The notes beneath the pieces were generated by a model. The model did not search any database. It was not told where the DNA came from and worked only from the letters and a program-made list of their open reading frames with translations. This document shows, piece by piece, positions 1 to 11,454 of a stretch of 25,824 nucleotides of DNA; the first letter of the stretch is position 1; each line of letters begins with the position of its first letter. The stretch lies in contig JBBQXH010000001.1 of NCBI GenBank assembly GCA_038209835.1, forward strand, positions 1-25,824. The letters are read 5' to 3'. The stretch comes from Gaiellales bacterium. GTDB lineage: Bacteria > Actinomycetota > Thermoleophilia > Gaiellales > Gaiellaceae. Made by a program: the position numbers and the translations under genes.

Positions 1-696
1 AACGGCGAGGTCGTCGACGCAACACGTGCGCGCGTTTTCGTGGCGAAAGGGGGCCTCGACGCGGTTCCTTCGATCGACGGAACCGCCGAGAACCTTCCCG
101 TTGGCGTGACCGAGGCGCAGGGTCAGGAGCTCGAGAGCCAGAGCGTCTGGGTCTCGCAGCTGGATCTCGACGAGCCCGGGCAGTACTCGATTCTCGTCGA
201 GCCTGACGGAGCGGAGATCCAGGGAAACGCGCAGATCGAGGTCGCCGACAAGTCGAGCGCACCGGCGATCGGAGCCCGTGCCATTCCCTCGGACAACCCG
301 ACCGTCGAAACCGATTTCCCCGACCGGATCACGACCGCCCGTCCACCCGACGTCGAGCTCCTGCGCTCCTCGATTGCGGAGGCGATCGCCGCGAACTCGC
401 CCTTCGTCGTCACCTTCTCGACGCCGCAGTACTGCGAAAGTCGTGTCTGCGGCCCCGTGGTCGACGTGGTCGACGCCGTGCGCAAGCGGTTCGCGGACAC
501 GGGTATCCGCTTCATCCACGTGGAGATCTACCAGGACAACGACCCGGGTCTCGGCTTTAACCGGTGGGTCAAGGAGTGGAACCTCCCGACCGAGCCGTGG
601 ACGTTCGTGGTCGACGGCTCGGGGATCATTCGCGACAGGTTCGAGGGCCTCGTCACCGTGGGGGAACTCGAGCAGTCGGTACGACAGCACCTCTAG
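1..696 (+). CDS. Thioredoxin-like fold protein, 5'-partial
   Basis: Frame 1 is open from base 1 (NGEVVDATRARVF...), so the track start at 40 is probably internal. C-terminal part FVVTFSTPQYCESRVCGP...FIHVEIY...WNLPTEPWTFVVDGSG resembles a redoxin fold with CxxxxC and a cis-Pro-like EP motif. TAG at 694-696. Confidence 0.65.
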   Translation, partial: NGEVVDATRARVFVAKGGLDAVPSIDGTAENLPVGVTEAQGQELESQSVWVSQLDLDEPGQYSILVEPDGAEIQGNAQIEVADKSSAPAIGARAIPSDNPTVETDFPDRITTARPPDVELLRSSIAEAIAANSPFVVTFSTPQYCESRVCGPVVDVVDAVRKRFADTGIRFIHVEIYQDNDPGLGFNRWVKEWNLPTEPWTFVVDGSGIIRDRFEGLVTVGELEQSVRQHL

Positions 697-785
697 CAAG
701 GAGCGAAGCGACGCGCAGCATCCGCGGCCGAAGGCCGCCAGGATGCGAAGGATTCACGGGCCGGCTTGTCCGGCTCGTACACGCG
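696..785 (+). repeat. Structured three-way-junction repeat, copy 1
   Basis: gcaaggagcgaagcgacgcgcagc (696-719) is identical to 4091-4114. It is followed by hairpin gcatcc-gcggcc/gaa/ggccgc-ca-ggatgc, then gaagg, hairpin acgggccgg/cttgt/ccggctcgt, aca and cgcg. Confidence 0.85.
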
Positions 786-1173
786 AACCCGCGAGACGAA
801 GCATCAGTTCGAGCGAGGAAGCCGGTCCCGGCCAGTGCTCCTCGATCAGTGACCGTCCGGAACTCCGGACGAAGAGTCGCAGCACGAGCGCGACGAGAAT
901 CACGTCATCGAGCTGGCCCGCGACGGGGATGAAGTCCGGGACGAGGTCGAAGGGAACCGCGAGGTAGACGACCAGAGCTCCGAGCAGCAGCTTGGAGGAT
1001 CGCGGCACACGCCCATCGCGCATGAGCCGCGAGAAGAGCACGACGCAGTCGGGGACGAATCGGGCGAAGGCACGCGCCTCGTCGCCACGACCCGTGACGA
1101 CGAGGGCGAGAACGAACCCAGCGTAGACGACCAGAGCGCTGCCCAGCCCGATCAGAATCCACGTGACACTCAT
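754..1173 (-). CDS. DUF1232 (YkvA-like) membrane protein
   Basis: Family motif YLAVPFDLVPDFIPVAGQLDD; hydrophobic N-terminal helix. Confidence 0.9.
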   Translation of the reverse strand: MSVTWILIGLGSALVVYAGFVLALVVTGRGDEARAFARFVPDCVVLFSRLMRDGRVPRSSKLLLGALVVYLAVPFDLVPDFIPVAGQLDDVILVALVLRLFVRSSGRSLIEEHWPGPASSLELMLRLAGSRVRAGQAGP

Positions 1174-1177
1174 GGCG

Positions 1178-2008
1178 CTACGCTCGAAGGATCGGCCGGG
1201 TCAGGCAAGTTGGACCGCCGTCGCCCTTTCGTGAGATCTCGTCGCCCTGATAGACGACGACGTCGACTCCCGCGCGCTCCATGCGCCTCCTCGTCTCGTC
1301 GTTCCCGGCGAGCGCCAACGCGACATGGGGTGCGACTGCGAGGACGTTCGGCCCCATCGTCTCGAACTCCTCGTCGGGCACATCGATACACCGGATTCCT
1401 CGATCGTCCAGGAGCTGTAGGAGCCTCACCGGCATCAGTGGGCGGTACACGACAGCGAGGTCCACCGCGAGCGGCGAGATGAACGACATGAGGTGGAGCA
1501 CCTCTCCCGGGCCACGGAAGTGGGGCAGATCGAAGGGCACGACCTCGACTCCTGGGAGAGCGGCCGCAAGTGATGCAATACCGTCTGCGTTCGTCCGGTA
1601 TCCGTGGCCGACGAGCAGCGTCCGCTCGTCGAGCCAGAGCGTGTCGCCACCCTCGACCGTTGCGGGCTCCTCGACCCGTGACGCGACCGGCACTCCCGCA
1701 AGGGCGAGGTCGCGCGCGATGGCCTCGGGTTCGCCGCGACGCCCTTCCTTTCCCGGACGAAGGAGAATCGCGCCATGGTTGGAGATGAGCGCGGGATCGT
1801 AGGCGTAGATCGCGTCCGGATCGCCCGGAACCTCGGTTCTGCCGAGGACCACGTCTACGCCCGCTCCGGCGAGTGCGACGCAAAGCGCGTCGTGCTCGAG
1901 CTCGAGGCGGCGAAGATCCGGCGCGCTGCGCCACCCGTACGCTTGCCAGGCCGCGACCGCATCTGCCGAGGGCGGTTTCACGAGAACGCGTCGGAGTCGC
2001 GCCGTCAT
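1178..2008 (-). CDS. Dimethylarginine dimethylaminohydrolase / amidinotransferase (pentein) family hydrolase
   Basis: Start reassigned to ATG 2008 (MTARLRRVLVKPP); the upstream part of track ORF 1178..2791 is antisense to selD. Motifs VEGGD, LHLMS, and C-terminal GGPTCLTRP with the catalytic Cys. 276 aa. Confidence 0.85.
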   Translation of the reverse strand: MTARLRRVLVKPPSADAVAAWQAYGWRSAPDLRRLELEHDALCVALAGAGVDVVLGRTEVPGDPDAIYAYDPALISNHGAILLRPGKEGRRGEPEAIARDLALAGVPVASRVEEPATVEGGDTLWLDERTLLVGHGYRTNADGIASLAAALPGVEVVPFDLPHFRGPGEVLHLMSFISPLAVDLAVVYRPLMPVRLLQLLDDRGIRCIDVPDEEFETMGPNVLAVAPHVALALAGNDETRRRMERAGVDVVVYQGDEISRKGDGGPTCLTRPILRA

Positions 2009-2037
2009 GTCCTGACAGCCGTAAGCAGCCGTCTCGC

Positions 2038-2043
2038 TAGTCT
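2038..2043 (+). promoter_or_regulatory. Putative -10 hexamer (TAGTCT) of leaderless selD transcript
   Basis: TANNNT lies 7 nt before GTG 2051; no Shine-Dalgarno in between. Confidence 0.55.
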
Positions 2044-2050
2044 GCATCGA

Positions 2051-3082
2051 GTGGAGGGTAACGCCACCAGGCTCACCGATCTCACCGTTGCCGGGGGATG
2101 TGCGGCGAAATACTCGGCGGCGAAGCTCGAAGCGTTGCTCGCCGGGTTCCTTCCCGTCGAGTCGGAGAACCTTCTGGTCGGCCTCGCTCCTGCCGACGAC
2201 GCCGCCGTCTACAAGCTCGATGACGAGCGGGCGCTGATCTTCACGGTCGACTTCTTTCCGCCACTTGTCGACGACCCCGACGACTTCGGCGCCATCGCCG
2301 CGACGAACGCCCTGAACGACGTCTTCGCGATGGGCGGTACACCGATTCTCGCGCTCTCGGTCGCGGCCTTCCCGGAGGAGCTCGCCGGAGAAGACGTCGC
2401 CGCGATCCTCTCCGCCGCGGATCGAAAGGTTCGGGAAGCGGGCGCCCTCCTGGCCGGCGGCCACACGATCCGGGACCCCGAGCCGAAGTACGGACTCGCT
2501 GTCGTCGGAACCGTCCACCCGGAGGGTGTTTGGCGCAAGAGCACGGCACGACCCGGAGACGCGCTTTTCCTCACGAAGCCGCTCGGCACCGGGCTGGTGC
2601 TTGCTGGGGTGAAGATTGGTCTGCTGGCACGCGACCTGCTGGCCGGGGCCGTGCAACAGATGACGACGCTGAACGCCGCGGCCGCGAATGTCCTCCGAAC
2701 GAGAGAGCCGCACGCTGTCACCGACGTGACGGGCTTCGGGCTCTTCGGCCACGCGATCGAGGTCGCAGAGCGAAGCGGTCTCGCGATCCACCTCGTGGCG
2801 GATAGGATCCCGGCCCTTCCCGGGGCGCTCGAGGCAGCGGCGGCGGGAATCGTGACCGGAGGCGACCCGAGAAACCGGGAGTTCGCAGCGGGAAGGATCG
2901 ACCTCGAGGGGGTTTCGGCGGAGCTCGGCCTACTCGGATTCGACCCGCAGACTGCAGGCGGTCTCCTCGTGTCCCTCCCAAGCGGGCACGCGGCCGTCCT
3001 CGAGGCGGAGTTCCGCTCGCGCGACCTCTTCCTCGCCCGGATCGGCCACGTTGCCGAGGGCGAGGGCGTTCACGTCGCCTAA
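2051..3082 (+). CDS. selD: Selenide, water dikinase (selenophosphate synthetase), Cys form
   Basis: LTDLTVAGGCAAK aligns with the SelD GxC/UxxK motif (Cys is residue 17, codon TGT at 2099-2101). Also DDAAVY, FTVDFFPP, FGAIAATNALNDVFAMGG, GGHT, LTKPLGTG, TDVTGFGLFGH and DPQTAGGLL. 343 aa. Confidence 0.93.
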   Translation: MEGNATRLTDLTVAGGCAAKYSAAKLEALLAGFLPVESENLLVGLAPADDAAVYKLDDERALIFTVDFFPPLVDDPDDFGAIAATNALNDVFAMGGTPILALSVAAFPEELAGEDVAAILSAADRKVREAGALLAGGHTIRDPEPKYGLAVVGTVHPEGVWRKSTARPGDALFLTKPLGTGLVLAGVKIGLLARDLLAGAVQQMTTLNAAAANVLRTREPHAVTDVTGFGLFGHAIEVAERSGLAIHLVADRIPALPGALEAAAAGIVTGGDPRNREFAAGRIDLEGVSAELGLLGFDPQTAGGLLVSLPSGHAAVLEAEFRSRDLFLARIGHVAEGEGVHVA

Positions 3083-3108
3083 CCCAACAGCCAGCTCGGG
3101 CGCGACCC

Positions 3109-3114
3109 TAGACT
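3109..3114 (+). promoter_or_regulatory. Putative -10 hexamer (TAGACT) of leaderless COX15/CtaA transcript
   Basis: TANNNT lies 7 nt before ATG 3122. Confidence 0.55.
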
Positions 3115-3121
3115 TGTAGCG

Positions 3122-4090
3122 ATGCTCGCCCGCGTCCGGAGCCGTCGCGTCTCACCGCAGGGCTTCCGGCGTATCGCGACGATCTCGGTCGGCGCGCTGC
3201 TGATCGTCGTCGTCACCGGCGCAGTCGTCCGTCTGACAGCGTCAGGGCTCGGCTGTGACAACTGGCCTCGCTGCGGCGATACGCCCTTTCCGGAGAAGGG
3301 CTTCCACGCGTTCGTCGAGTTCGGAAACCGGATGGTCGCGCTTGTGGCGATCGTGATCGCGATCGTCACGTGGATCGCATCTCGACGAGTGGACGGGCTA
3401 CCTCGCTGGGTCTCCTGGACAGCGGGAGCCGTGGCTCTCGGCACGATCGCGCAGATCCCCCTCGGTGGGCTCACGGTGATCCTGGATCTGCACCCGCTCG
3501 CCGTGATGAGCCACTTCTTCCTCGCCCTGGCGATGCTCGGACTGGCCGTTCTCGTCGCGCTCGAGGCGCGCGCCTTCGAGGTGGGGAGACCAGACTCGAC
3601 CGTCCCTCGGGCACTCGGCTGGCTGTCGCTCGCCCTCGTCCCTGTGGGGATCGTTCTGCTCGTCACGGGCACGCTCGTTACCGCGGCCGGCCCTCACTCG
3701 GGTGGTGCGGACATCCGGCGCCTCGGCAATCTCGAGGATGCCGTCTACGTTCACGTGAGGGCCAGCGCGATCTTCGGCGTCGCATTCTTGATCCTCGTGA
3801 TCGCACTCCTGCGATTCCGGCGCACAGCCCGACCTGAGCTCCTGCTTGCCTGCGGTGCTCTGCTCCTCCTGCTCGTCCAGATGGGAATCGGCGAGTACCA
3901 GTGGCGCAATCAGCTTCCCTGGCAGGTCGTCCTCGTTCATGTCTCGCTCGCGGCAACCATCTGGGCGGCGCTCGTGGCGCTCGCCGTCCGTGTCGTCTGG
4001 GCCGGGCAAGGCGCGAAGCGACGCGCAGCGGCCGACCAGGCCGCGAAGGCCCACGGACCGGACGAAGTCCGGGCCGTACAGAACGCGTAG
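3122..4090 (+). CDS. ctaA: COX15/CtaA family heme A synthase
   Basis: About 8 hydrophobic segments; SGLGCDNWPRCG, EFGNR, SHFFLA, AGPHSG and later His residues (YVH, LVH). The last 27 codons come from repeat copy 2. Confidence 0.85.
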   Translation: MLARVRSRRVSPQGFRRIATISVGALLIVVVTGAVVRLTASGLGCDNWPRCGDTPFPEKGFHAFVEFGNRMVALVAIVIAIVTWIASRRVDGLPRWVSWTAGAVALGTIAQIPLGGLTVILDLHPLAVMSHFFLALAMLGLAVLVALEARAFEVGRPDSTVPRALGWLSLALVPVGIVLLVTGTLVTAAGPHSGGADIRRLGNLEDAVYVHVRASAIFGVAFLILVIALLRFRRTARPELLLACGALLLLLVQMGIGEYQWRNQLPWQVVLVHVSLAATIWAALVALAVRVVWAGQGAKRRAAADQAAKAHGPDEVRAVQNA

Positions 4091-4175
4091 GCAAGGAGCG
4101 AAGCGACGCGCAGCGGCCGGCCAGGCCGCGAAGGCCCACGGACCGGACGAAGTCCGGCCCTTACAAGACGCGTAG
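4006..4175 (+). repeat. Tandem pair of 85-bp structured repeats (copies 2 and 3)
   Basis: 4006-4090 and 4091-4175 differ at 6 of 85 positions by manual alignment; both end in acgcgtag. Confidence 0.95.
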
Positions 4176-4207
4176 ACCAGCCCGGATAATCCGCGGGGAC
4201 CGGCTAG

Positions 4208-4213
4208 TACACT
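4208..4213 (+). promoter_or_regulatory. Putative -10 hexamer (TACACT) for PAC2 gene
   Basis: TANNNT lies 6 nt before the in-frame ATC at 4220. Confidence 0.5.
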
Positions 4214-4219
4214 CCGCGG

Positions 4220-5119
4220 ATCGGCGACCACCTTCGTATCGAGAGCCGGCCGGTGCTGCGCCGGCCGGTCATGATCGCCGCGTTCCGCGGCTGGAACGAC
4301 GGGGCACAGGGGGCATCCCTCGCGGCGAGTTTCCTCGCGCGTGCTTGGGACGCGACGAGGTTCGCAGACATCGATCCGGAAGAGTTCTTCGACTTCCAGG
4401 CGATCCGCCCGCACGTCTCGCTCGAAGACGGGCAGACGCGCCGAATCGACTGGCCGGAGAACGTCTTCTACCATGCCGCGATCCCTACGGCCTCGGAGCA
4501 GGACGAGCGAGACGCTGTACTCATCCTCGGCGTCGAGCCGAACACACGGTGGCGGACGTTCACGAGCGAGATCGTCGGGCTCGCCCAGGAGCTCCGCGTC
4601 GAGCTCCTCATCACGCTCGGGGCTCTGCTCGCCGACGTGCCCCACACGAGGCCGAGCCCGGTGACGGGGGCGGCGACCGATCCTGCGCTCGTCGAGGAGC
4701 TCGGTCTCGCCAACTCGCGCTACGAGGGCCCGACGGGGATCGTCGGAGTTCTTCACGATGCGTGCCGTGAAGCTTCGATCGCTTCGGCGAGCCTCTGGGC
4801 GGCCGTTCCGCACTATGCGTCGCTCGCACCCAGCCCACGGGCTGCCGGGTCGCTCTGTACCCGACTCGGCGAGCTTGTCGGCGCCGAGCTCGACCTCGAT
4901 GAGCTCGAGCGGGCGAGCGAGGTCTACGAACGCCAGGTGAGCGAGGCAGTCGCTTCCGACGAGGAGACCGAAGCGTACGTCCGCGAGCTCGAGCGCCGGG
5001 CCGACCAGTACGAAGCAGAGGCGGACCTCCCCTCAGGCGATACGCTCGCGGCAGAGTTGACACGCTTCCTGCGCGAGCACGAGGCGCGCCGTCGGGAAGA
5101 GGAAGAAGAAGAGGACTAG
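4220..5119 (+). CDS. PAC2 family (proteasome assembly chaperone-like) protein
   Basis: AAFRGWNDG, DPEEFFDFQAIRP, GVEPN, TLGALLADVPHTRP, YEGPTGIVG, WAAVPHY. The first canonical start is GTG 4253, but gene-like sequence extends to ATC 4220 (see findings). Confidence 0.9.
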   Translation: MGDHLRIESRPVLRRPVMIAAFRGWNDGAQGASLAASFLARAWDATRFADIDPEEFFDFQAIRPHVSLEDGQTRRIDWPENVFYHAAIPTASEQDERDAVLILGVEPNTRWRTFTSEIVGLAQELRVELLITLGALLADVPHTRPSPVTGAATDPALVEELGLANSRYEGPTGIVGVLHDACREASIASASLWAAVPHYASLAPSPRAAGSLCTRLGELVGAELDLDELERASEVYERQVSEAVASDEETEAYVRELERRADQYEAEADLPSGDTLAAELTRFLREHEARRREEEEEED

Positions 5120-7593
5120 CCGGCGGGCGACGCTACGCCGTCGCTCACGGGTTCGACCGGCTCGGGCAAGACGGCTTCAGATGTTTCGGCCGCTCCCTCG
5201 GGAGTGACCGGAGATCCGCCGTTCTGAGTGACCCGCGCCGGCCCATCCTGCGAGCCATCGCGCTTCTTCCGCCGCCGGCGGCGACGTGACTTCCCGGCCT
5301 GATTCTTCGGCGCGGGAAGGTTGTCCGCCAGCGCCTCGGCGACCTGCTCGTTCGTCCCGACCCGCGCGCGGGCCTTCTCGATCAGCTGTTGCGCTGTCGG
5401 GGTGTATCCCTCGGCGGAGGCCAGGAGGGCCGAAGCAACCTGGGGCGTCTGCTCGAGCGCGACGTTGACGAGCCGCGCCGAGTTCTCCTCATGGCGATGT
5501 CCACGGGAGTTGGCGAGAGCTCCGAGCAGGCGCTTGGCATCGGGCAGCTCCGCGCTCGCTCGACGGTCCTGCAGCTTTCGGGTGGCCCGGGCGAGCTTCC
5601 AGGTCCACCTGGTGATGATGTCTTCCGGCGCTTCGACTTTGCCGTTTGCGATTGCCCGCAACAGGATGCGAACGCCTTGCACGCGATCCTTCTCCCAGGT
5701 CGGCGACGAGATCACGATCGTGACCAGGTCGTCGAAGCTCGCGCGGTCGATCATCGTGGCGACCCGGTCGCCAAGCGCTTGGAGCCGAAGCCTCCGGTTC
5801 GGATTCTCGGCCGCGCAACTCATGAGGAACATCTCACGGCAGTCTCGGCTCGCCCGCGCGAGCTTCTCCGCGAACTGCTGCCGCTCGTCGTAGCGGAGCT
5901 GGCGGCCCGCGATGCGCGCCCATAGCTCCTGCTCGTCATCGGCGAGCCGCGAAGGATCGACGCGCTGCCATTCGCGAGCGATGACGGTGAGACGCCTCCG
6001 CGGGTCGGGCGTCACAGGGACGAGCCAGGAAGCGGGCGAGAGCTTACGGCGGGCCCGCCGCTGCATACGTCGGCGCGGCGCCGGCGTAACCCGCGCGCCA
6101 GGCCGGTAGAAGTCAGAGTCGAGGAGGGTGTGCAGCGTGATCGTCCGGTCGTTGTGCGTCGCCGCGGGATCGATGAAGTCGACGACGATCCCGGCCTCCT
6201 TGCGCGGGTGGATTCGCATGATTCGCCCGATCCGCTGCTGGTAGACGCGGCGGCTCGCAGTAGGGGCCAGATGCATGCACACGGTGGCTCGCGGCGAGTT
6301 CCAGCCCTCGGCGAGCAGCTGGGCGTTGATGAGCACGTTGATCTCGCCGCGCTCGTAGGCGGCGAGCGTCTCGGCGAGCCGGAGGGGAGGCGTCCGTCCG
6401 CTTACGGCCTCTGCCTTGATTCCCGCGGCCCGGAACTCCCGGGCGAGGTTGTAGGCATGGTCGACCCCGGCCGCATAGACGATCCCGGGCGTGGCGTCGA
6501 AGCGATCCCGGTACAGGCTCGCCGCCGCCTGGTTGATCAGCTCGTGGTCGAGAACCTTGGCGAGCGCTTCCTGGTCGTAGTCCCCGCCGACGATCGGAAC
6601 GGTCGAGATGGCGGCCGCGGGCGGGACGCGAAGGCAGCGAAGGGGGGCGATCAGGCCGCGCCGCGCCGCATCGCCGAGCGGAAGGTCGTCGACCGAAGCG
6701 GGGAAGACGTCTGAGACCTGCTTCGCGATCAACTGCTCCGTCGCGGTCATTCCGATGTAGATCGGCTCCGTGAGGCTTCTGATCGCTGCGCTCGTCTTCT
6801 CACCGAGCGCCGTGTGCGCTTCGTCACAGATCACGAGTTGATACGCGGTCCGGCTCAGCGACGTAACATGACGCGCGAACCACGCGTAGGTCTGGATCGT
6901 GATGGGGTTACCCCTCAACGGGTCGGTTCCCTCGAGGACAGGCGCTGCAAAGCGAGCCCCATACCCCTCGGTCGTCAGGTCGCTCGTGAACTGGTTCACG
7001 AGGAGTCGCCGATGGGTGAGGATCAGGACCCCCATGGTGCGCGCCGCCTCGACGAAGCCCGCCGCCGCGATCGTCTTGCCCGATGCGGTGGGGTGACGGA
7101 ACCGGTAGCGGCGCTCGGCGCCCGGATCGTCCGCGACCCGATCGACGTCGTCGTCGAGGTCGTCCTCCAGCTCCTCCGGCTCGTCGTCCTCCTCTGGCTC
7201 AGCCTCGGTGCCGTTCCCGTTCGGCTCGGCGGGCTGCTCCTCATGCGCAATCAACTCCGTCAGCATCCCCGCCAACGCATCGGACTGATGCCGGCGTAGC
7301 TCGGTGCCGGACGCGAGGTGCGGGCTCTCCTCGCTCAGCACTCGCTCCAGCCCGAGCATCAGCGCAAAGCTCACCTTCCACGCCGACGAGGGCGCGCGAC
7401 GCCCCTCGTCCATCTCGGCCAGGGCAGCGTCCAGTGCGCGCCGGCGTGCCGACTTCTCGGCGAGGGCCTCGACGGGATTCTCGTCAGGGCGCAGGAAAGG
7501 CTCACCGGCCCATTTCTCCGCCCTCGCGGCGTCGGCCACGAGTACGTCGACCTCGGCCGACATCAACGTCGAGTGCTCTGAGTGTTCCTGCAT
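5116..7593 (-). CDS. SF2 DEAD/DEAH-box helicase (ResIII-like core) with N- and C-terminal extensions
   Basis: Motif I PTASGKT, II DEAH, III MTAT, V LAEGWN, VI QRIGR. Acidic linker before the core, long helical C-terminal region and an RRRRRRKKR tail. Start uncertain (ATG 7593 or 7563). Confidence 0.88.
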   Translation of the reverse strand: MQEHSEHSTLMSAEVDVLVADAARAEKWAGEPFLRPDENPVEALAEKSARRRALDAALAEMDEGRRAPSSAWKVSFALMLGLERVLSEESPHLASGTELRRHQSDALAGMLTELIAHEEQPAEPNGNGTEAEPEEDDEPEELEDDLDDDVDRVADDPGAERRYRFRHPTASGKTIAAAGFVEAARTMGVLILTHRRLLVNQFTSDLTTEGYGARFAAPVLEGTDPLRGNPITIQTYAWFARHVTSLSRTAYQLVICDEAHTALGEKTSAAIRSLTEPIYIGMTATEQLIAKQVSDVFPASVDDLPLGDAARRGLIAPLRCLRVPPAAAISTVPIVGGDYDQEALAKVLDHELINQAAASLYRDRFDATPGIVYAAGVDHAYNLAREFRAAGIKAEAVSGRTPPLRLAETLAAYERGEINVLINAQLLAEGWNSPRATVCMHLAPTASRRVYQQRIGRIMRIHPRKEAGIVVDFIDPAATHNDRTITLHTLLDSDFYRPGARVTPAPRRRMQRRARRKLSPASWLVPVTPDPRRRLTVIAREWQRVDPSRLADDEQELWARIAGRQLRYDERQQFAEKLARASRDCREMFLMSCAAENPNRRLRLQALGDRVATMIDRASFDDLVTIVISSPTWEKDRVQGVRILLRAIANGKVEAPEDIITRWTWKLARATRKLQDRRASAELPDAKRLLGALANSRGHRHEENSARLVNVALEQTPQVASALLASAEGYTPTAQQLIEKARARVGTNEQVAEALADNLPAPKNQAGKSRRRRRRKKRDGSQDGPARVTQNGGSPVTPEGAAETSEAVLPEPVEPVSDGVASPAG

Positions 7594-7666
7594 GCTGTGC
7601 AAGGGCCTCGCGCCGCCGGGAAACAGAGGTAGGAGGCGCGCAGAGCAGATTGTGCTGCTCCCCGTA

Positions 7667-7672
7667 AGCATA
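7667..7672 (-). promoter_or_regulatory. Putative -10 hexamer (TATGCT) for helicase gene
   Basis: The minus strand reads ggggTATGCT about 70 nt upstream of ATG 7593, followed by a gagcag/ctgctc hairpin (7643-7660). Confidence 0.4.
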
Positions 7673-7717
7673 CCCCACCGGTCGGCGTGCGCAACGCGGG
7701 CCGGTTACGCTCGTGTC

Positions 7718-8374
7718 GTGGAGCGCTGGGCGGCTCACGTGGAACGCGAGGCAGCCCGCTATCGAGACGGGCTGGCGCGGCTACCCTCCGAGCCGGACGC
7801 ACGCCAGAAACAGCTCGTTCGGATCGCCAACGCCGCATCCGGCTGCGGCCTCGCCTCCCTCATGATGGGCGATCAGGAAGCCTCCGCCCGGTGGTTCAGC
7901 CTCGCTGCGGCGCGGTATCGCGAGAGCTACGGTGACGCTCCGCAAGGAAGTTGGGGGCGGCCGATCGGAGCTGTCAAAGCGCGGCTTCTCGCAGGGGATG
8001 TCGAGGGAGCGCAGGATGACGCCCGCTGGGCGCTCGCCCAATCGCCGCAGGAGGCTCACTCGCCGATCGGGATCTACGCTGCCGCCCTGGCAGCGCTCGC
8101 TCTCGACCGCGACGCTGACGCCGCAGTCCTTGCGGGCGAGCTGACTCGTCTCCGCGACGAGGAGTTCCCGCAAGACGTCGCGCTCGCACTCGACGGTCTC
8201 GCCCGCTCCGACCAACGTCGCTACGAGGATGGGCTGCAGCGAACCCTGCAGTCCTTCGAGGGGAGAGACGCGTATCTCGAGGACGTCCCGGTCGCGGACA
8301 CCGTCCTCGTCCTCGAGGCACTCGCGGCATCCCGAGGCATCGCGGTCCTCCCCGAGTCTCCGCTCCTACCGTAA
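7718..8374 (+). CDS. Hypothetical alpha-helical protein
   Basis: Start set at GTG 7718, 6 nt after TACGCT (7706-7711); the upstream part of the track ORF is antisense to the helicase. Ala/Leu-rich helical pattern, C-terminal YLEDVPVADTVLVLEALA. 218 aa. Confidence 0.7.
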   Translation: MERWAAHVEREAARYRDGLARLPSEPDARQKQLVRIANAASGCGLASLMMGDQEASARWFSLAAARYRESYGDAPQGSWGRPIGAVKARLLAGDVEGAQDDARWALAQSPQEAHSPIGIYAAALAALALDRDADAAVLAGELTRLRDEEFPQDVALALDGLARSDQRRYEDGLQRTLQSFEGRDAYLEDVPVADTVLVLEALAASRGIAVLPESPLLP

Positions 8375-8407
8375 CGCAGCCGGCGCCGACCACTATTCTC
8401 ACACCTA

Positions 8408-10072
8408 GTGGCACCGGTGGACTACTACGACCTCGGAACCCATGGCCGCGTGGTGTCGACGACGTCCACCGAGACGCAGCTCTGGTTCGATCGCGGGCTC
8501 GTCTGGTGCTACGGATTCAACCACGGGGAGTCGGTCCGCTGCTTCCGCGAGGCCGCCGGGCACGACCCCGAGTGCGCGATGGCGTATTGGGGAATCGCCT
8601 ATGCCGCCGGCCCGAACTACAACAAGGCGTGGGATGCGTTCGACGACGTCGACAGGGCAACTGCGACGCATGAGGCGCATCAGGCCGCAAGAACGGCGTT
8701 CGACCTCGCCGACGGGGCGTCGCCGGTCGAGCGGGCGCTGATCGAGGCCGTCCAGCATCGCTATCCCTCGGACGTCCCGATCGAGGACTGCTCGATCTGG
8801 AACGACAACTACGCGAACGCCATGCGGCAGGTCTACACGTCATTCCCCGATGACCACGATGTCGCGACGCTCTTCGCGGAAGCGCTGATGAACCGCACGC
8901 CGTGGCAGCTGTGGGACCTCGAAACGGGGGAGCCTGCCGACGGCGCCGACACGCTAGAGGCAATCGAGGTGCTCGAGCGCGCCCTGCAAAGCGTCGAGGC
9001 CTCCGGTGCGGATCCCCACCCGGGTCTTCTACACATGTACGTGCATCTCATGGAGATGTCCCCTCATCCGGAGCGCGCCCTCCGGGCGAGCGACCAGCTA
9101 CGGGATCTCGTGCCGGACGCTGGACACCTGAGGCACATGCCGACCCACATCGACGTCCTCTGCGGCTACTACCACGACGTCGTCGTCGGGAACGAGAAGG
9201 CGATCGTCGCCGACCGGAAGTTCCTCGAGCGCGAGGGGGCGGTGAACTTCTACTCCGCCTACCGCTGTCACGACTACCACTTCAAGCTCTACGGGGCGAT
9301 GTTCCTCGGCCAGCTCGCGCCGGCGCTCGAGGCCGCAGACGAGATGGTCTCGACGCTTCCCGAGGAGCTGCTGAGGGTCGAAGTACCGCCGATGGCCGAC
9401 TGGCTCGAGGCGTTCGTGCCGACGAAGATGCACGTTCTGATCAGGTTCGGCCGCTGGCAGGACATCATCGACGAGCACCTACCGGACGACGCGGAGCTCT
9501 ATTGCTTCACGACGGCCCTTAAGCACTACGCCAAAGCCGTCGCGTACGCCGCGACGGGTGACGTCTCGGCTGCCGAGGGGCAGCGCGGACTCTTCTCCGA
9601 GGCCATCACACGGGTTCCGTCAACTCGGTACCTGTTCAACAACACGTGCCTCGACATCATCGCGATCGCAGCGGAGATGCTGAACGGCGAGCTCGAGTAC
9701 CGCAGGGGAAACGTCGACCTCGCGTTCTCGCACCTGCGACGATCGGTCGAGCTCGACGACAACCTGCCCTACGATGAGCCCTGGGGCTGGATGCAGCCGG
9801 CGCGCCACGCGCTCGGAGCGCTCCTGCTCGAGCAGGGTCGCGTCGAGGAGGCCGAAGCCGTGTATCGCGCAGACCTCGGGCTGGACGGGACGCTCTCACG
9901 GGCGTGTCAGCATCCCGAGAACGTCTGGAGCCTGCACGGGCTCCACGAATGCCTGACGAGACTCGGCAAGGAGACCGAGGCGGGAATGCTGAAGCCGCGG
10001 CTCGACCTGGCCGTCGCCCGGGCCGACGTCCCGATCCGTTCCTCCTGCTACTGCCGTCTCGACGCGGCATAG
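8408..10072 (+). CDS. TPR-like helical repeat protein with clustered His motifs, function unknown
   Basis: 554 aa. TPR-like segments (WCYGFNHGES...CAMAYWGIAYA; ARHALGALLLEQGRVEEAEAVY), His clusters HPGLLHMYVH, GHLRHMPTH and CHDYH, and C-terminal SSCYCR. Confidence 0.85.
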   Translation: MAPVDYYDLGTHGRVVSTTSTETQLWFDRGLVWCYGFNHGESVRCFREAAGHDPECAMAYWGIAYAAGPNYNKAWDAFDDVDRATATHEAHQAARTAFDLADGASPVERALIEAVQHRYPSDVPIEDCSIWNDNYANAMRQVYTSFPDDHDVATLFAEALMNRTPWQLWDLETGEPADGADTLEAIEVLERALQSVEASGADPHPGLLHMYVHLMEMSPHPERALRASDQLRDLVPDAGHLRHMPTHIDVLCGYYHDVVVGNEKAIVADRKFLEREGAVNFYSAYRCHDYHFKLYGAMFLGQLAPALEAADEMVSTLPEELLRVEVPPMADWLEAFVPTKMHVLIRFGRWQDIIDEHLPDDAELYCFTTALKHYAKAVAYAATGDVSAAEGQRGLFSEAITRVPSTRYLFNNTCLDIIAIAAEMLNGELEYRRGNVDLAFSHLRRSVELDDNLPYDEPWGWMQPARHALGALLLEQGRVEEAEAVYRADLGLDGTLSRACQHPENVWSLHGLHECLTRLGKETEAGMLKPRLDLAVARADVPIRSSCYCRLDAA

Positions 10073-10103
10073 CGTCCGCGTCCTGGCGAGCTACAGCGGG
10101 AGC

Positions 10104-10224
10104 CCGCGCATGTGCCGAAACCCTCCGGCTTTCGGCGATCCTTCGCAGCCGGCCTTGCCGTCTGCTGCGCGGCCCGCTTGCGCGTGCCTTACGGCGCGGC
10201 CCGCTCTCGCGGGCCTTGCCTTGC
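10104..10224 (-). repeat. Structured three-way-junction repeat, diverged copy 4 with duplicated head
   Basis: The minus strand reads gcaaggcaagg...gtaaggcacgcgcaagcggg-ccgcg-ca-gcagacggc/aag/gccggctgc-gaaggatc-gccgaaagcc/ggag/ggtttcggc-acatg-cgcgg: same junction bases as copies 1-3, different stems. Confidence 0.7.
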
Positions 10225-11454
10225 CACCCAGGCGATCGTCCGGTCGGCTAGGCGATCGAGTGCCTTCACACAGAGCTCGAGGTGCTCCGGCTTCGTGTCC
10301 TCGAGCTTCGTGTGCGAGAGCCCCCGCAGGCTCTGCACGAACAGCATCACCGTCGGTATCCCGGCCCGCGAGACCTCGGCGGCGTCGTGGAGTGGGCCGC
10401 TCGGAAGCCGATGGGAGGTGCCGGCGACCTCGACGATCGCCTCCTCGCAAAATCCGATCAGCGTCTCGTCGAAGAGGATCGGCTCGATCCCCCAGATCCG
10501 TTCCCACTCGACATCGAGTCGCTCCTGCGCGGCGAACCGCTCGCTCGCCTCCTTCGCCTGCGTGAGCATCGCCGCTAGCGTCCCCGCCTCGAGGTGACGC
10601 TGGTCGAGCAGGCACGCAGCCTCCTCGACGACCGACGTGACGATGCCGGGCTTCGTCACGACCGAGCCCATCGTGCAGACCGCCCCGCCGCCTGTCCGGC
10701 CCGCGATCTCCCGGATCTCGAGCTCGAGCCTCGAAGCGCCGGCGAGCGCATCGCGCCGCTCAGCCATCGGCGTCGATCCCGCATGAGCTGCCTGGCCGCG
10801 GAACGTGACCCGATGCCGCTCGACGCCGAACGTGCCGAGGACCGCACCGAGCGGAAGGCCCATCGATTCGAGCACCGGTCCCTGCTCGATGTGCAGCTCG
10901 AGGTAGGCGGCGGCGCTCTCTAGATGACGGCCGGCCTTCACCATCTCGTCGAGGTTGACGCCGTGCTCGCCGAGAGCATCCGGAAGCTCGACGCCGTCGC
11001 GGTCTCGGAGCGCTCGAAGCTCGTCCTGATCGCGCATCGAGCCGGCAGCCGCGCTCGAGCCGAGGAGGCTTCGGCCGAATCGCGCGCCTTCCTCGTCGGC
11101 CCAATCGACCAGCCGGACCGTGACCGGCGGGGTGCCCTCGCCGGCAATCCGCCGGAGCACCTCGAGCCCGCCGACGACGTTGAGACAGCCGTCCAGCCAG
11201 CCGCCATTCGGAACGGAGTCGATGTGGCCGCCGATCAGCACTGCCCGCTCCGTCTCGCCGCGCAAGGTCGCCCACTGGTTGCCAGCCTCGTCGATCTCGA
11301 CCTCGACCGGGAGCTGCGCCAGCTTCTCGCGCATCCAGGCGCGTGCCGCGGCCCACGTATCGGTCCAGCAGACCCGCTGAGCCCCGTTCTCGTCCCCCGT
11401 CAGCTCCTGGAGCTCGCGAAGCTCGACAACGGTACGAGACGGATCCAGAGGCAC
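10189..11454 (-). CDS. M20 family Zn amidohydrolase, N-carbamoyl-amino-acid hydrolase / allantoate amidohydrolase type
   Basis: GGHIDSVPNGGWLDG, DEEGARF, YLELHIEQGP, AHAGSTPM, SGPLHDA and GLSH. TAGATT (11466-11461) lies 6 nt before GTG 11454. Confidence 0.92.
   Translation of the reverse strand: MPLDPSRTVVELRELQELTGDENGAQRVCWTDTWAAARAWMREKLAQLPVEVEIDEAGNQWATLRGETERAVLIGGHIDSVPNGGWLDGCLNVVGGLEVLRRIAGEGTPPVTVRLVDWADEEGARFGRSLLGSSAAAGSMRDQDELRALRDRDGVELPDALGEHGVNLDEMVKAGRHLESAAAYLELHIEQGPVLESMGLPLGAVLGTFGVERHRVTFRGQAAHAGSTPMAERRDALAGASRLELEIREIAGRTGGGAVCTMGSVVTKPGIVTSVVEEAACLLDQRHLEAGTLAAMLTQAKEASERFAAQERLDVEWERIWGIEPILFDETLIGFCEEAIVEVAGTSHRLPSGPLHDAAEVSRAGIPTVMLFVQSLRGLSHTKLEDTKPEHLELCVKALDRLADRTIAWVARQGPRERAAP

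Follow-up and report, generated by a model that had tools for sequence, protein, structure and literature searches.

Three-hairpin repeats at gene 3' ends in Gaiellaceae, probably a lineage-specific family of the REP, BIME and MIRU kind

REP and BIME elements of Proteobacteria are high-copy, non-coding, hairpin-forming sequences that lie mainly downstream of genes (convergent or co-directional ORFs), build mosaics of variant hairpins and linkers in tandem and inverted clusters, carry an xTAG or xAAG tag ahead of the palindrome and are occasionally found in coding tails (Di Nocera et al., 2013, PMC3733652). Many REPs have been argued to work as RNA, and Actinomycetota are not among the phyla named as hosts of GTAG repeats (Di Nocera et al., 2013, PMC3733652). 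The Gaiellaceae repeat analysed here resembles these elements in most of these traits, and possibly also in the tag: it is high-copy, extragenic and mainly downstream of genes, and it forms clusters of alternative hairpins and linkers in varied combinations. A REP is one palindrome of 20-40 nt, whereas the Gaiellaceae unit joins three distinct hairpins in fixed order by conserved single-stranded linkers, is sense to the adjacent gene with its 5' end abutting the stop codon or tRNA end, and was not found flanking any RAYT gene.

Three other systems were compared. MIRUs reportedly carry short ORFs in phase with their neighbours and are inserted inside operons at stop/start junctions. Actinobacterial host, tandem sense units of 50-100 nt and ends overlapping the stops of flanking genes are common to both families. 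Membership was rejected: stop overlap is common in the Gaiellaceae repeat, but the tandem described below has a period of 85 nt (no multiple of three), copies do not restore a start codon, and they lie mostly at the ends of transcription units, with the space between convergent genes as the commonest context. MITEs (Neisseria Correia elements) are likewise small, non-autonomous, co-transcribed with their neighbours and folded as RNA. They were rejected because the 5' end (GCAAGG...) and 3' end (...ACA-N-GCGCG or GTATCC) of the Gaiellaceae repeat are not complementary, giving no terminal inverted repeats, and because filled and empty sites (ctaA tail, C175 locus) differed without TA or other target-site duplication at the junctions examined. 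The integron attC site is a structured, strand-specific imperfect palindrome of variable sequence and conserved fold, placed in sense behind or overlapping the stop of the preceding ORF, as in the Gaiellaceae repeat. An attC array was rejected: instead of forming one cassette array, copies make up 92 islands scattered across at least 85 contigs, where they follow housekeeping and tRNA genes (ctaA, M20 peptidase, tRNA-Leu/Arg), and the GTTRRRY core was not seen in the repeat.

Gaiellaceae rank with the most abundant uncultured actinobacteria of soil. The source genome (G000; Gaiellales bacterium, GCA_038209835.1) is a Gaiellaceae MAG of 2.77 Mb, 82% complete, at 68% GC. The window (the whole stretch of DNA analysed, 25,824 nucleotides) covers positions 1 to 25,824 of the forward strand of contig JBBQXH010000001.1. 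Relatives were searched in two samples of 61 and 151 genomes, G000 included.

Copy 1 (696-785, +; 31.3 bits) was located from the sequence and with nhmmer. It consists of GCAA (696-699), hairpin H0 (700-712, with tandem G.A pairs and a GAA loop), GCGCA (713-717), hairpin H1 (718-746, the long form with a CA bulge), GAAGGATTC (747-755), hairpin H2 (756-778), ACA (779-781) and a CGCG box (782-785). Its first base is the G of the TAG stop (694-696, +) of the upstream ORF at 1-696, and the convergent DUF1232 gene (754-1173, -) terminates within its H2. Copy 2 (4006-4090, +) lies within the 3' end of a ctaA/COX15-like ORF (3122-4090) and comprises H0 (4010-4022), GCGCA (4023-4027), H1 (4028-4044), GAAGGCCC (4045-4052), H2 (4053-4077), CGCG (4084-4087) and TAG (4088-4090). 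The final ~28 residues of that ORF are encoded by the copy; ctaA orthologues align only to residues 1 to ~290-310 of 322, and the native stop region is still present at ~4205-4207. Copy 3 (4091-4175, +; 38.9 bits) ends in CGCG-TAG (4169-4175) and forms a direct tandem with copy 2, with a period of 85 nt.

Copy 4 (10105-10192, -; 56.3 bits) begins with the head GTAAGG (10192-10187), followed by GCGCA (10170-10166), H1 (10165-10145), GAAGGATC (10144-10137), H2 (10136-10114), ACA (10113-10111) and GCGCG (10109-10105). The TAA inside the head (10191-10189) is the stop codon of an M20 peptidase gene (10189-11454, -). A partial extra head (10193-10224, -; GCAAG-GCAAGG, a CCCGC-GAGA-GCGGG hairpin, then GCGC) falls in the final ~11 codons of the same ORF, in which the Pfam M20 domain stops at residue 404 of 421. 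The original prediction had placed four copies of one layout in the window; all were found where expected, the fourth resolving into the full copy (10192-10105) and the partial head (10224-10193), and the shared linkers (GCAAGG or GTAAGG, GCGCA, GAAGG, ACA) and the proposed pairings of its stems P2 and P3 could be read directly from the sequence. All four copies also lie in sense at a gene 3' end. No T-run was present behind H2 in any of them or in 70 parsed tails from the family, which agrees with the absence of a U-tract noted earlier, and an intrinsic (Rho-independent) terminator was rejected on this ground.

The non-coding, modular unit is ~70-100 nt long and runs GCAA, H0, GCGCA, H1, GAAGG-YYC, H2 and a final ACA or GTATCC, behind which GCGCG is frequent. 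Between genera, the unpaired linkers are conserved and the stems co-vary, strongly so in all three hairpins, both within G000 and across three other genomes. Both-sided changes were found in 18-19 of 23 hairpin base pairs. Paired cells in the hairpins amounted to 91-92%, against 71-73% in shuffles, and none of 500 shuffles matched the observed values, although these statistics overstate independence because the model shaped the alignments and copies have a common ancestry within subfamilies. The predicted combination of conserved junction bases and compensating stems was borne out, with covariation of H0, H1 and H2 beyond every shuffle. Folding energies taken alone were unimpressive (z-scores of -0.9 to -2.6, the shuffled sequences folding almost as well).

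The three-way junction that had been proposed was kept in part. Its linkers and co-varying stems stand, but the fold that proved robust consists of three hairpins in succession. The closing helix P1 can be drawn in all four window copies but is optional in the family: a GCGC/CGCG box occurs within 14 nt past H2 in 31-34 of 70 parsed copies (~45%), against 13-16% of random 14-nt genome windows, and both strands of P1 are invariant. The proposed head GCG(C)AAGCG proved to be the co-varying hairpin H0, which pairs by either tandem G.A or Watson-Crick pairs. Each hairpin is preceded by xxAG (CAAG, GCAG, GAAG or GTAG); the tag of H2 lies 4-5 nt from the stem and is GAAG in most copies, with GTAG in its place in roughly half of the members of the youngest subfamily.

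In G000, 130 matches were obtained with nhmmer, and a covariance model built as had been suggested gave 131 matches at E<=0.01 among 150 scored candidates. Median pairwise identity between copies was 71%, and hairpin variants recombine freely: H1 comes in short, medium and long forms, these are joined to five or more types of H2, and extra modules occur in some copies. Dispersed copies of one young subfamily (H2 = GGCCGC-GGA-GCGGCC-GTATCC) are 93-96% identical. Single copies, direct tandems and convergent pairs were seen, along with truncated or partial copies. Seven of the 61 genomes in the first sample of the order carried the repeat. Among 89 Gaiellaceae genera sampled, seven gave matches and four were multi-copy (g1, g9, g12, g77); no match was found in 24 genomes from four sister families. 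Rfam 15 yielded no match at the gathering score over the whole window and none at E<=10 over 3950-4250, in line with the earlier failure to place the element in a familiar family.

Docking was analysed with our own crude ORF/GC3 gene calls. Of 104 arrays, 41 overlap the stop of a co-oriented ORF (at least 300 nt long) or begin no more than 8 nt past it (random intergenic positions, 2.5%), part of this adjacency being trivial because convergent genes in the compact G000 genome are often less than 20 nt apart or overlapping. In a further 25 of 104, a co-oriented ORF reads into the element (random intergenic positions, 14%). Another 30 arrays could be assessed, and most of them have a co-oriented ORF whose stop is 9-27 nt upstream, often reached via a partial head. 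Three tRNA genes (tRNA-Leu/Arg being among the host genes) carry a sense-oriented element 2 nt downstream. The same docking was observed in G001, G012 and G009. With few exceptions, the element is in sense to the gene that it abuts, and + copies lie left of - copies in 20 of 20 convergent gene pairs. Docking is polar, sharp at the 5' end of the element and broad at the 3' end, where the distance to the convergent stop ranges from -25 to +299 nt (median ~40). Nearly all surviving copies have their 5' end at the last functional bases of a co-oriented protein or tRNA gene, or slightly inside them. Copies often provide the stop codon (TA|G, G-TAA-GG or the loop GTAG) or a new C-terminal tail. About 15 islands were in seemingly wrong gene contexts, mostly overlapping ORFs on both strands, as called by the same crude procedure.

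Orthologous sites were compared between genomes. The C175 locus is empty in G001 and filled in G000, 1 nt past a conserved TGA. Two copies lie ~75 nt before the native stop in the ctaA tail of G000, two different ones lie ~25 nt before it in that of G001, and the orthologue in a third Gaiellaceae MAG (L072) is empty. At the level of sequence comparison, the filled and empty sites and the differing insertion points in two congeners show turnover. Mobility was inferred from such comparative patterns only, because neither a transposase nor terminal inverted repeats nor a target-site duplication was found.

The family is new and its kind familiar, a selfish or semi-domesticated repeat. It is probably a lineage-specific, non-autonomous family of the REP, BIME and MIRU kind. 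The REP-like mobile family put forward in the original prediction was supported by high copy number, lineage restriction, modularity, tandem and convergent arrays, filled and empty sites and the lack of an Rfam match. The comparisons show that the family multiplies and turns over within genomes as DNA, and its units would be co-transcribed as the beginning of a 3'-UTR or tRNA trailer. Selection acting on the sense strand in its folded form may maintain the stems, whether as a recognition feature for a mobilising enzyme or as a barrier to 3'-to-5' RNA decay, the role that REPs play in E. coli. Polar docking could reflect a strand-specific insertion or conversion step together with purifying selection against copies that do not end translation quickly.

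The strict sense orientation agrees with a possible RNA-level role (stabilising or processing 3' ends), and together with the conservation of linkers across genera it would suit a selected RNA function equally well. In its strongest form, the element would be primarily a functional RNA 3'-end module (a U-tract-less terminator, a 3'-exonuclease barrier, or a fold recognised by an RNase or RNA-binding protein that sets the ends of transcripts and tRNA trailers), and its spread as DNA would be secondary, as a self-propagating gene-end cassette. REPs reportedly stabilise upstream mRNA and, close to a stop codon, affect translation. Sense orientation that extends to the three tRNA genes, 5'-sharp docking, and linkers kept while stems co-vary all point the same way. 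Folding of the sense strand is favoured because stem mismatches are strand-asymmetric (75 G.A against 2 C.T; 13 G.T against 6 A.C), but the G.A excess traces to about three inherited positions and few independent events. The missing U-tract and modest z-scores speak against such a module, as do the ~82 of 89 sampled Gaiellaceae genera that manage without the family. Differing positions in the same gene tail of congeners, and partial copies, resemble insertion debris more than a tuned signal. RNA function as the primary explanation was considered unlikely, if the most serious competitor to a mobile repeat.

Somewhat less likely still is a gene-end-homing element, whose sense-strand three-hairpin fold would be recognised by a dedicated factor, whose insertion or conversion would be coupled to gene 3' boundaries (stops, tRNA 3' ends), and which would deliver a stop codon and a 3'-end RNA structure. 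If true, this would be a target choice and a host-element bargain undescribed for REPs, MITEs and IS200/IS605 derivatives.

That the repeat is a genuine REP/REPIN family, moved in trans as folded single-stranded DNA through the RAYT-like (IS200/IS605-type Y1) transposase of the genome, was judged quite improbable. The tag before each hairpin speaks for it, and in the youngest subfamily GTAG stands four bases ahead of the palindrome (GCG-TAG-TYCA-GGCCGC...), resembling GTAG-tagged REPs (PMC3733652). RAYT-like genes were found in G001 and G012 (NCBIfam NF047646, ~72 bits, slightly below the 80-bit cut-off), and G000 has a weak, stop-interrupted match. The RAYT/IS200-type link suggested earlier nevertheless failed: such genes are widespread in the order regardless of the element (Y1_Tnp, PF01797, in 42 of 61 genomes, with or without it), and Y1_Tnp was not found in element-rich G009 (63% complete) or in G026 (7 element matches). 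No RAYT-like gene in G001, G012 or G000 had a copy closer than ~5 kb (best E=0.33-0.44), and 57-nt palindromes of a separate, unrelated kind flank the gene in G012. Single copies and direct tandems predominate, unlike the inverted doublets typical of REPINs. The mobiliser is probably not this transposase.

A fortuitous likeness between GC-rich hairpins, or an assembly error in a fragmented MAG, might be suspected from the GC content, from shuffles that fold nearly as well and from the numerous copies at contig ends, but is refuted to near certainty by more than 130 copies with identically ordered linkers, by the family on long contigs of MAGs from other studies and by independent public soil-metagenome contigs that span copies 1 and 4.

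The sharp polar docking at protein and tRNA gene ends, the stops made from the first bases of the element and the independent insertions in one gene tail amount to a clean set of natural data on how small repeats select gene ends or persist there, and on whether they also serve as 3'-end RNA structures in high-GC bacteria without classical U-tract terminators. The family makes up a sizeable share of intergenic DNA in G000 and some related genera, and a covariance model would allow annotators to mask it. Short-read assemblies are broken by it: many G000 copies are at contig ends, and public contigs terminate within the tandem pair of copies 2 and 3. Gene calls acquire false or extended C-termini, the cases in the window being ctaA, the M20 peptidase and the DUF1232 protein.

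The window is the entire contig C1 of a Gaiellaceae MAG (G000; 2.77 Mb in 459 contigs, 68% GC, completeness 82%, contamination 3%). The four stretches named in the original prediction were all present, with linkers in a common order, at 696-785 (+), 4006-4090 (+), 4091-4175 (+) and 10105-10192 (-) (copies 1 to 4). The further genomic copies for which it had called were found in G000 by iterated nhmmer seeded with the four window copies (130 matches) and by a covariance model, R1 (at least 131 matches at E ≤ 0.01); the true copy number is higher, as scoring with R1 covered 150 of the 3224 first-look candidates and contig ends carry many of the copies. The proposed Rfam check was also run, and no known family was matched by the whole window at the gathering score or by the tandem pair (copies 2 and 3) even at E ≤ 10. 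Literature searches turned up no repeats described from Gaiellales or Gaiella. Median pairwise identity between copies was 71%, yet one subfamily was 93-96% identical between dispersed copies, so the family is old and has been recently active. A second covariance model, R2, made from an alignment of 44 copies, was used to search two samples, one of 61 relatives and one of 151 family genomes; G000 is in both, and jointly they cover 89 Gaiellaceae genera. The family was found in 7 of the 89: many copies were present in g1 (G000, G001), g9 (G009, G118), g12 (G012) and g77 (G088, G145), and g22, g25 and g26 gave 1-7 matches (all per-genome counts are lower bounds). R2 gave no match in 24 genomes of four sister families. 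None of the conclusions draws on the unpublished genome G029. The repeats form a new lineage-restricted family of modular hairpins, similar to REP, BIME and MIRU elements, with an unusually sharp polar tie to gene 3' ends.

In all window copies GCAAGG (GTAAGG on the minus strand) is followed in turn by a small hairpin, GCGCA, a hairpin opened and closed by GC, GAAGG with 3-4 further bases, another hairpin, ACA and, some bases further on, CGCG; copies 2 and 3 adjoin exactly head to tail with an 85-nt period. About 130 copies were compared side by side. The linkers and the hairpins P2 and P3 of the predicted layout were borne out; its "head" proved to be a hairpin, and the robust form is three consecutive hairpins (H0, H1 and H2). 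H0 is most commonly GG-AGC-GAA-GCG-AC, in which tandem G.A/A.G accompanies two Watson-Crick pairs and a closing G-C; elsewhere G-C/C-G takes the place of the G.A pairs (GGCGC-GAA-GCGCC), some stems are longer (e.g. GGCGCCCC-GCTA-GGGGCGCC), and the loops are GAA or GNRA-like. H1 comes in three sizes, a short one of 17 nt, a medium one of 21 nt that has a conserved A.G, and a long one of ~29 nt with a CA bulge; H2 shows no fewer than five stem types, and its loops are of 3-4 nt. H2 is preceded by a GTAG or GAAG tag that resembles those of REPs. In some copies H2 is followed by a fourth hairpin, GGCCGCGACCCC-N-TTTTCAGC-GGTGGC-GNAG-CCACCG-GTATC (L035:1592-1660 on G000 contig C175, and on contigs C356 and C372); this further conserved module makes the family more of a mosaic than its three-hairpin core would suggest. 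Direct tandem arrays of 5-7 units were seen in relatives (G012:C3:2004551-2004975; G088:C1:442647-442957 and 1875359-1875796); in some the period is shortened to ~68 nt, and the loci are VNTR-like.

Pairing was evaluated on covariance-model-fitted alignments of 44 own-genome copies and of 55 copies from G001, G012 and G009. Paired cells amounted to 91.0% (shuffled 73.3%) and 92.4% (shuffled 70.7%), both-side changes were found at 18 of 23 and 19 of 23 pairs, none of 500 shuffles reached the observed value in either set, and sliding the partner by 1-3 columns gave 28-43% and 28-40%; these figures are upper bounds, because the alignments lean to the model and the copies share ancestry. The covariation anticipated for the stems was obtained within those bounds, and stems of different copies, plainly unrelated in sequence, nevertheless pair. 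The closing helix P1 of the original prediction fared less well: of the 70 parsed copies, 31-34 have a GCGC or CGCG box in the 14 nt that follow H2, which exceeds the 13-16% of random 14-nt windows but is under half, and the helix is weaker than the hairpins. Both P1 strands are invariant, which places this helix out of reach of covariation. In the shuffle-fold check z-scores were modest (-0.9 to -2.6), so that folding energy by itself argues little for structure, and the opposite strand folds about equally well. Stem mismatches were strand-asymmetric (G.A 75 versus C.T 2; G.T 13 versus A.C 6) and derive from a few inherited positions. A K-turn reading of the tandem G.A pairs was rejected on inspection, as the bulge geometry does not fit and copy 1 has Watson-Crick pairs instead. 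We know of no resemblance of the element to the hammerhead, twister, pistol or hairpin self-cleaving ribozyme cores.

Positions relative to genes were determined for 104 arrays, with ORFs called by length and third-position GC, a crude procedure, though stop codons are unambiguous. Forty-one arrays start overlapping, or within 8 nt after, the stop codon of a co-oriented ORF of at least 300 nt (2.5% for random intergenic positions and strands), most commonly with a TAG whose G is the first G of the element (10 arrays) or with gaps of 0-3 nt. In another 25 a co-oriented ORF reads in and stops within the element (14% at random), 8 of them at GTAG in the H0 loop. The remaining 38 include 8 within 300 nt of a contig edge; in most of the others a co-oriented ORF ends 9-27 nt upstream, often via a truncated extra head. 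All three stops adjoin the element (TAG 22, TAA 14, TGA 5, versus 36%, 9% and 55% genome-wide), with TAG and TAA enriched (36/41 versus 45%). Docking recurs in G001, G012 and G009, where the upstream ORF ended at an in-frame TAA in 7/7 sampled copies headed GTAAGG; the M20 peptidase gene (10189-11454, -) likewise ends at the TAA in the GTAAGG head of copy 4. Since a sense-oriented element also begins 2 nt after 3 of 35 tRNA genes (tRNA-Leu(tag), tRNA-Arg(tct) and a tRNA-Arg on contig C396), its partner is the gene end and not the stop codon as such. Convergent gene pairs holding copies had plus copies left of minus copies in 20/20, so every copy points away from its own gene. The 3' side is undocked, the distance from H2 to the convergent stop being -25 to +299 nt (median ~40). 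Convergent genes without elements are often less than 20 nt apart or overlap, so part of the stop adjacency is a consequence of genome compactness. On the minus strand the convergent DUF1232 gene (754-1173) has its end inside H2 of copy 1, and its final ~12 codons and stop (754-790, -) are read off the antisense strand of the element. The commonest head variant contains the perfect Shine-Dalgarno core AAGGAG right after the stop codon (698-703, 4093-4098 and in about half of all copies); no start codon was found at a suitable distance downstream, and the motif might hold or pause terminating ribosomes.

In E. coli, REPs near stop codons affect mRNA stability and translation, and the sense orientation, polar docking and conserved linkers seen here would fit an element that acts in the transcript, for example in blocking 3' exonucleases or signalling RNA processing. 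Many REPs have been argued to act as RNA (PMC3733652). The element, however, has no U-tract, most Gaiellaceae genera lack it, and copies that are partial or differently placed resemble insertion debris; the window locus was matched in none of the RNA runs searched.

Of the two alternatives put forward originally, a REP-like family or a 3'-end RNA motif, the former is supported by copy number and by filled and empty orthologous sites. Orthologues of the ctaA/COX15-like ORF (3122-4090, +) in 80 related MAGs match residues 1 to ~290-310 of 322 only. In a third Gaiellaceae MAG (L072) the orthologue ends at TAG followed by TAGACTCC..., and this native stop region persists at ~4205, downstream of copies 2 and 3. 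Insertion of these two therefore took place ~75 nt ahead of the native stop, and the TAG between them now terminates the ORF. In G001, of the same genus, the ctaA tail holds two different variants, inserted ~25 nt before the native stop with TAG at the junction. At the contig C175 locus G000 and G001 share a TGA; the G000 copy starts 1 nt past it, and the G001 site is empty. This native TGA rules out that the element always brings its own TAG. The element follows tRNA-Leu(tag) in both G000 and G001, with differing H0 and H1 sequences, and is missing after this gene in G012, G003, G009 and G002. The neighbour of tRNA-Leu(tag) is tRNA-Arg(tcg), divergent from it in G001, G012, G009 and G003 (L200-L203); in G000 the two genes are co-directional with two element copies between (L026:1417-1770, contig C3), either by inversion of the tRNA-Leu and element unit or by misassembly at the repeat.

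An association of this REP-like family with a RAYT/IS200-type Y1 transposase, as had been suggested, was rejected. Of 61 genomes sampled from the order, 42 have Y1 genes, irrespective of the element, and no copy lies near the RAYT-like genes of G001 and G012 (~72 bits on the NCBIfam RAYT model, cut-off 80). The G012 gene (L070:4903-5727) is flanked on both sides by a near-perfect 57-nt palindrome, CGGGGTCAGGTCTTGCAATGCAA... (L070:4781-4837 and L070:5748-5804), which is unrelated to the present family, and the gene resembles a REPtron that has a REP of its own; a weaker CGGGGTCAG motif lies upstream of the G001 gene. The sole Y1 match in G000 (C348:1934-2191) is weak (25.8 bits) and TGA-interrupted, and may be a gene in decay. 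Searches for terminal inverted repeats, target-site duplications and Y1 genes yielded no mobiliser. A MITE reading was dismissed, as neither terminal inverted repeats nor a target-site duplication was found at the ctaA and C175 sites, an apparent 'TA' duplication at the G001 ctaA junction being dropped since that subfamily conserves the 3' GTATCC.

Copies 1 and 4 are bridged by contigs from four soil metagenomes, which break off within the tandem pair; the joints were noisy, and no clean empty-site allele was seen. Public soil-metagenome contigs carry 1-2-nt insertions (G, CG) in the H1 loop region of copy 4 (10154-10156), which is strain-level variation within the element.
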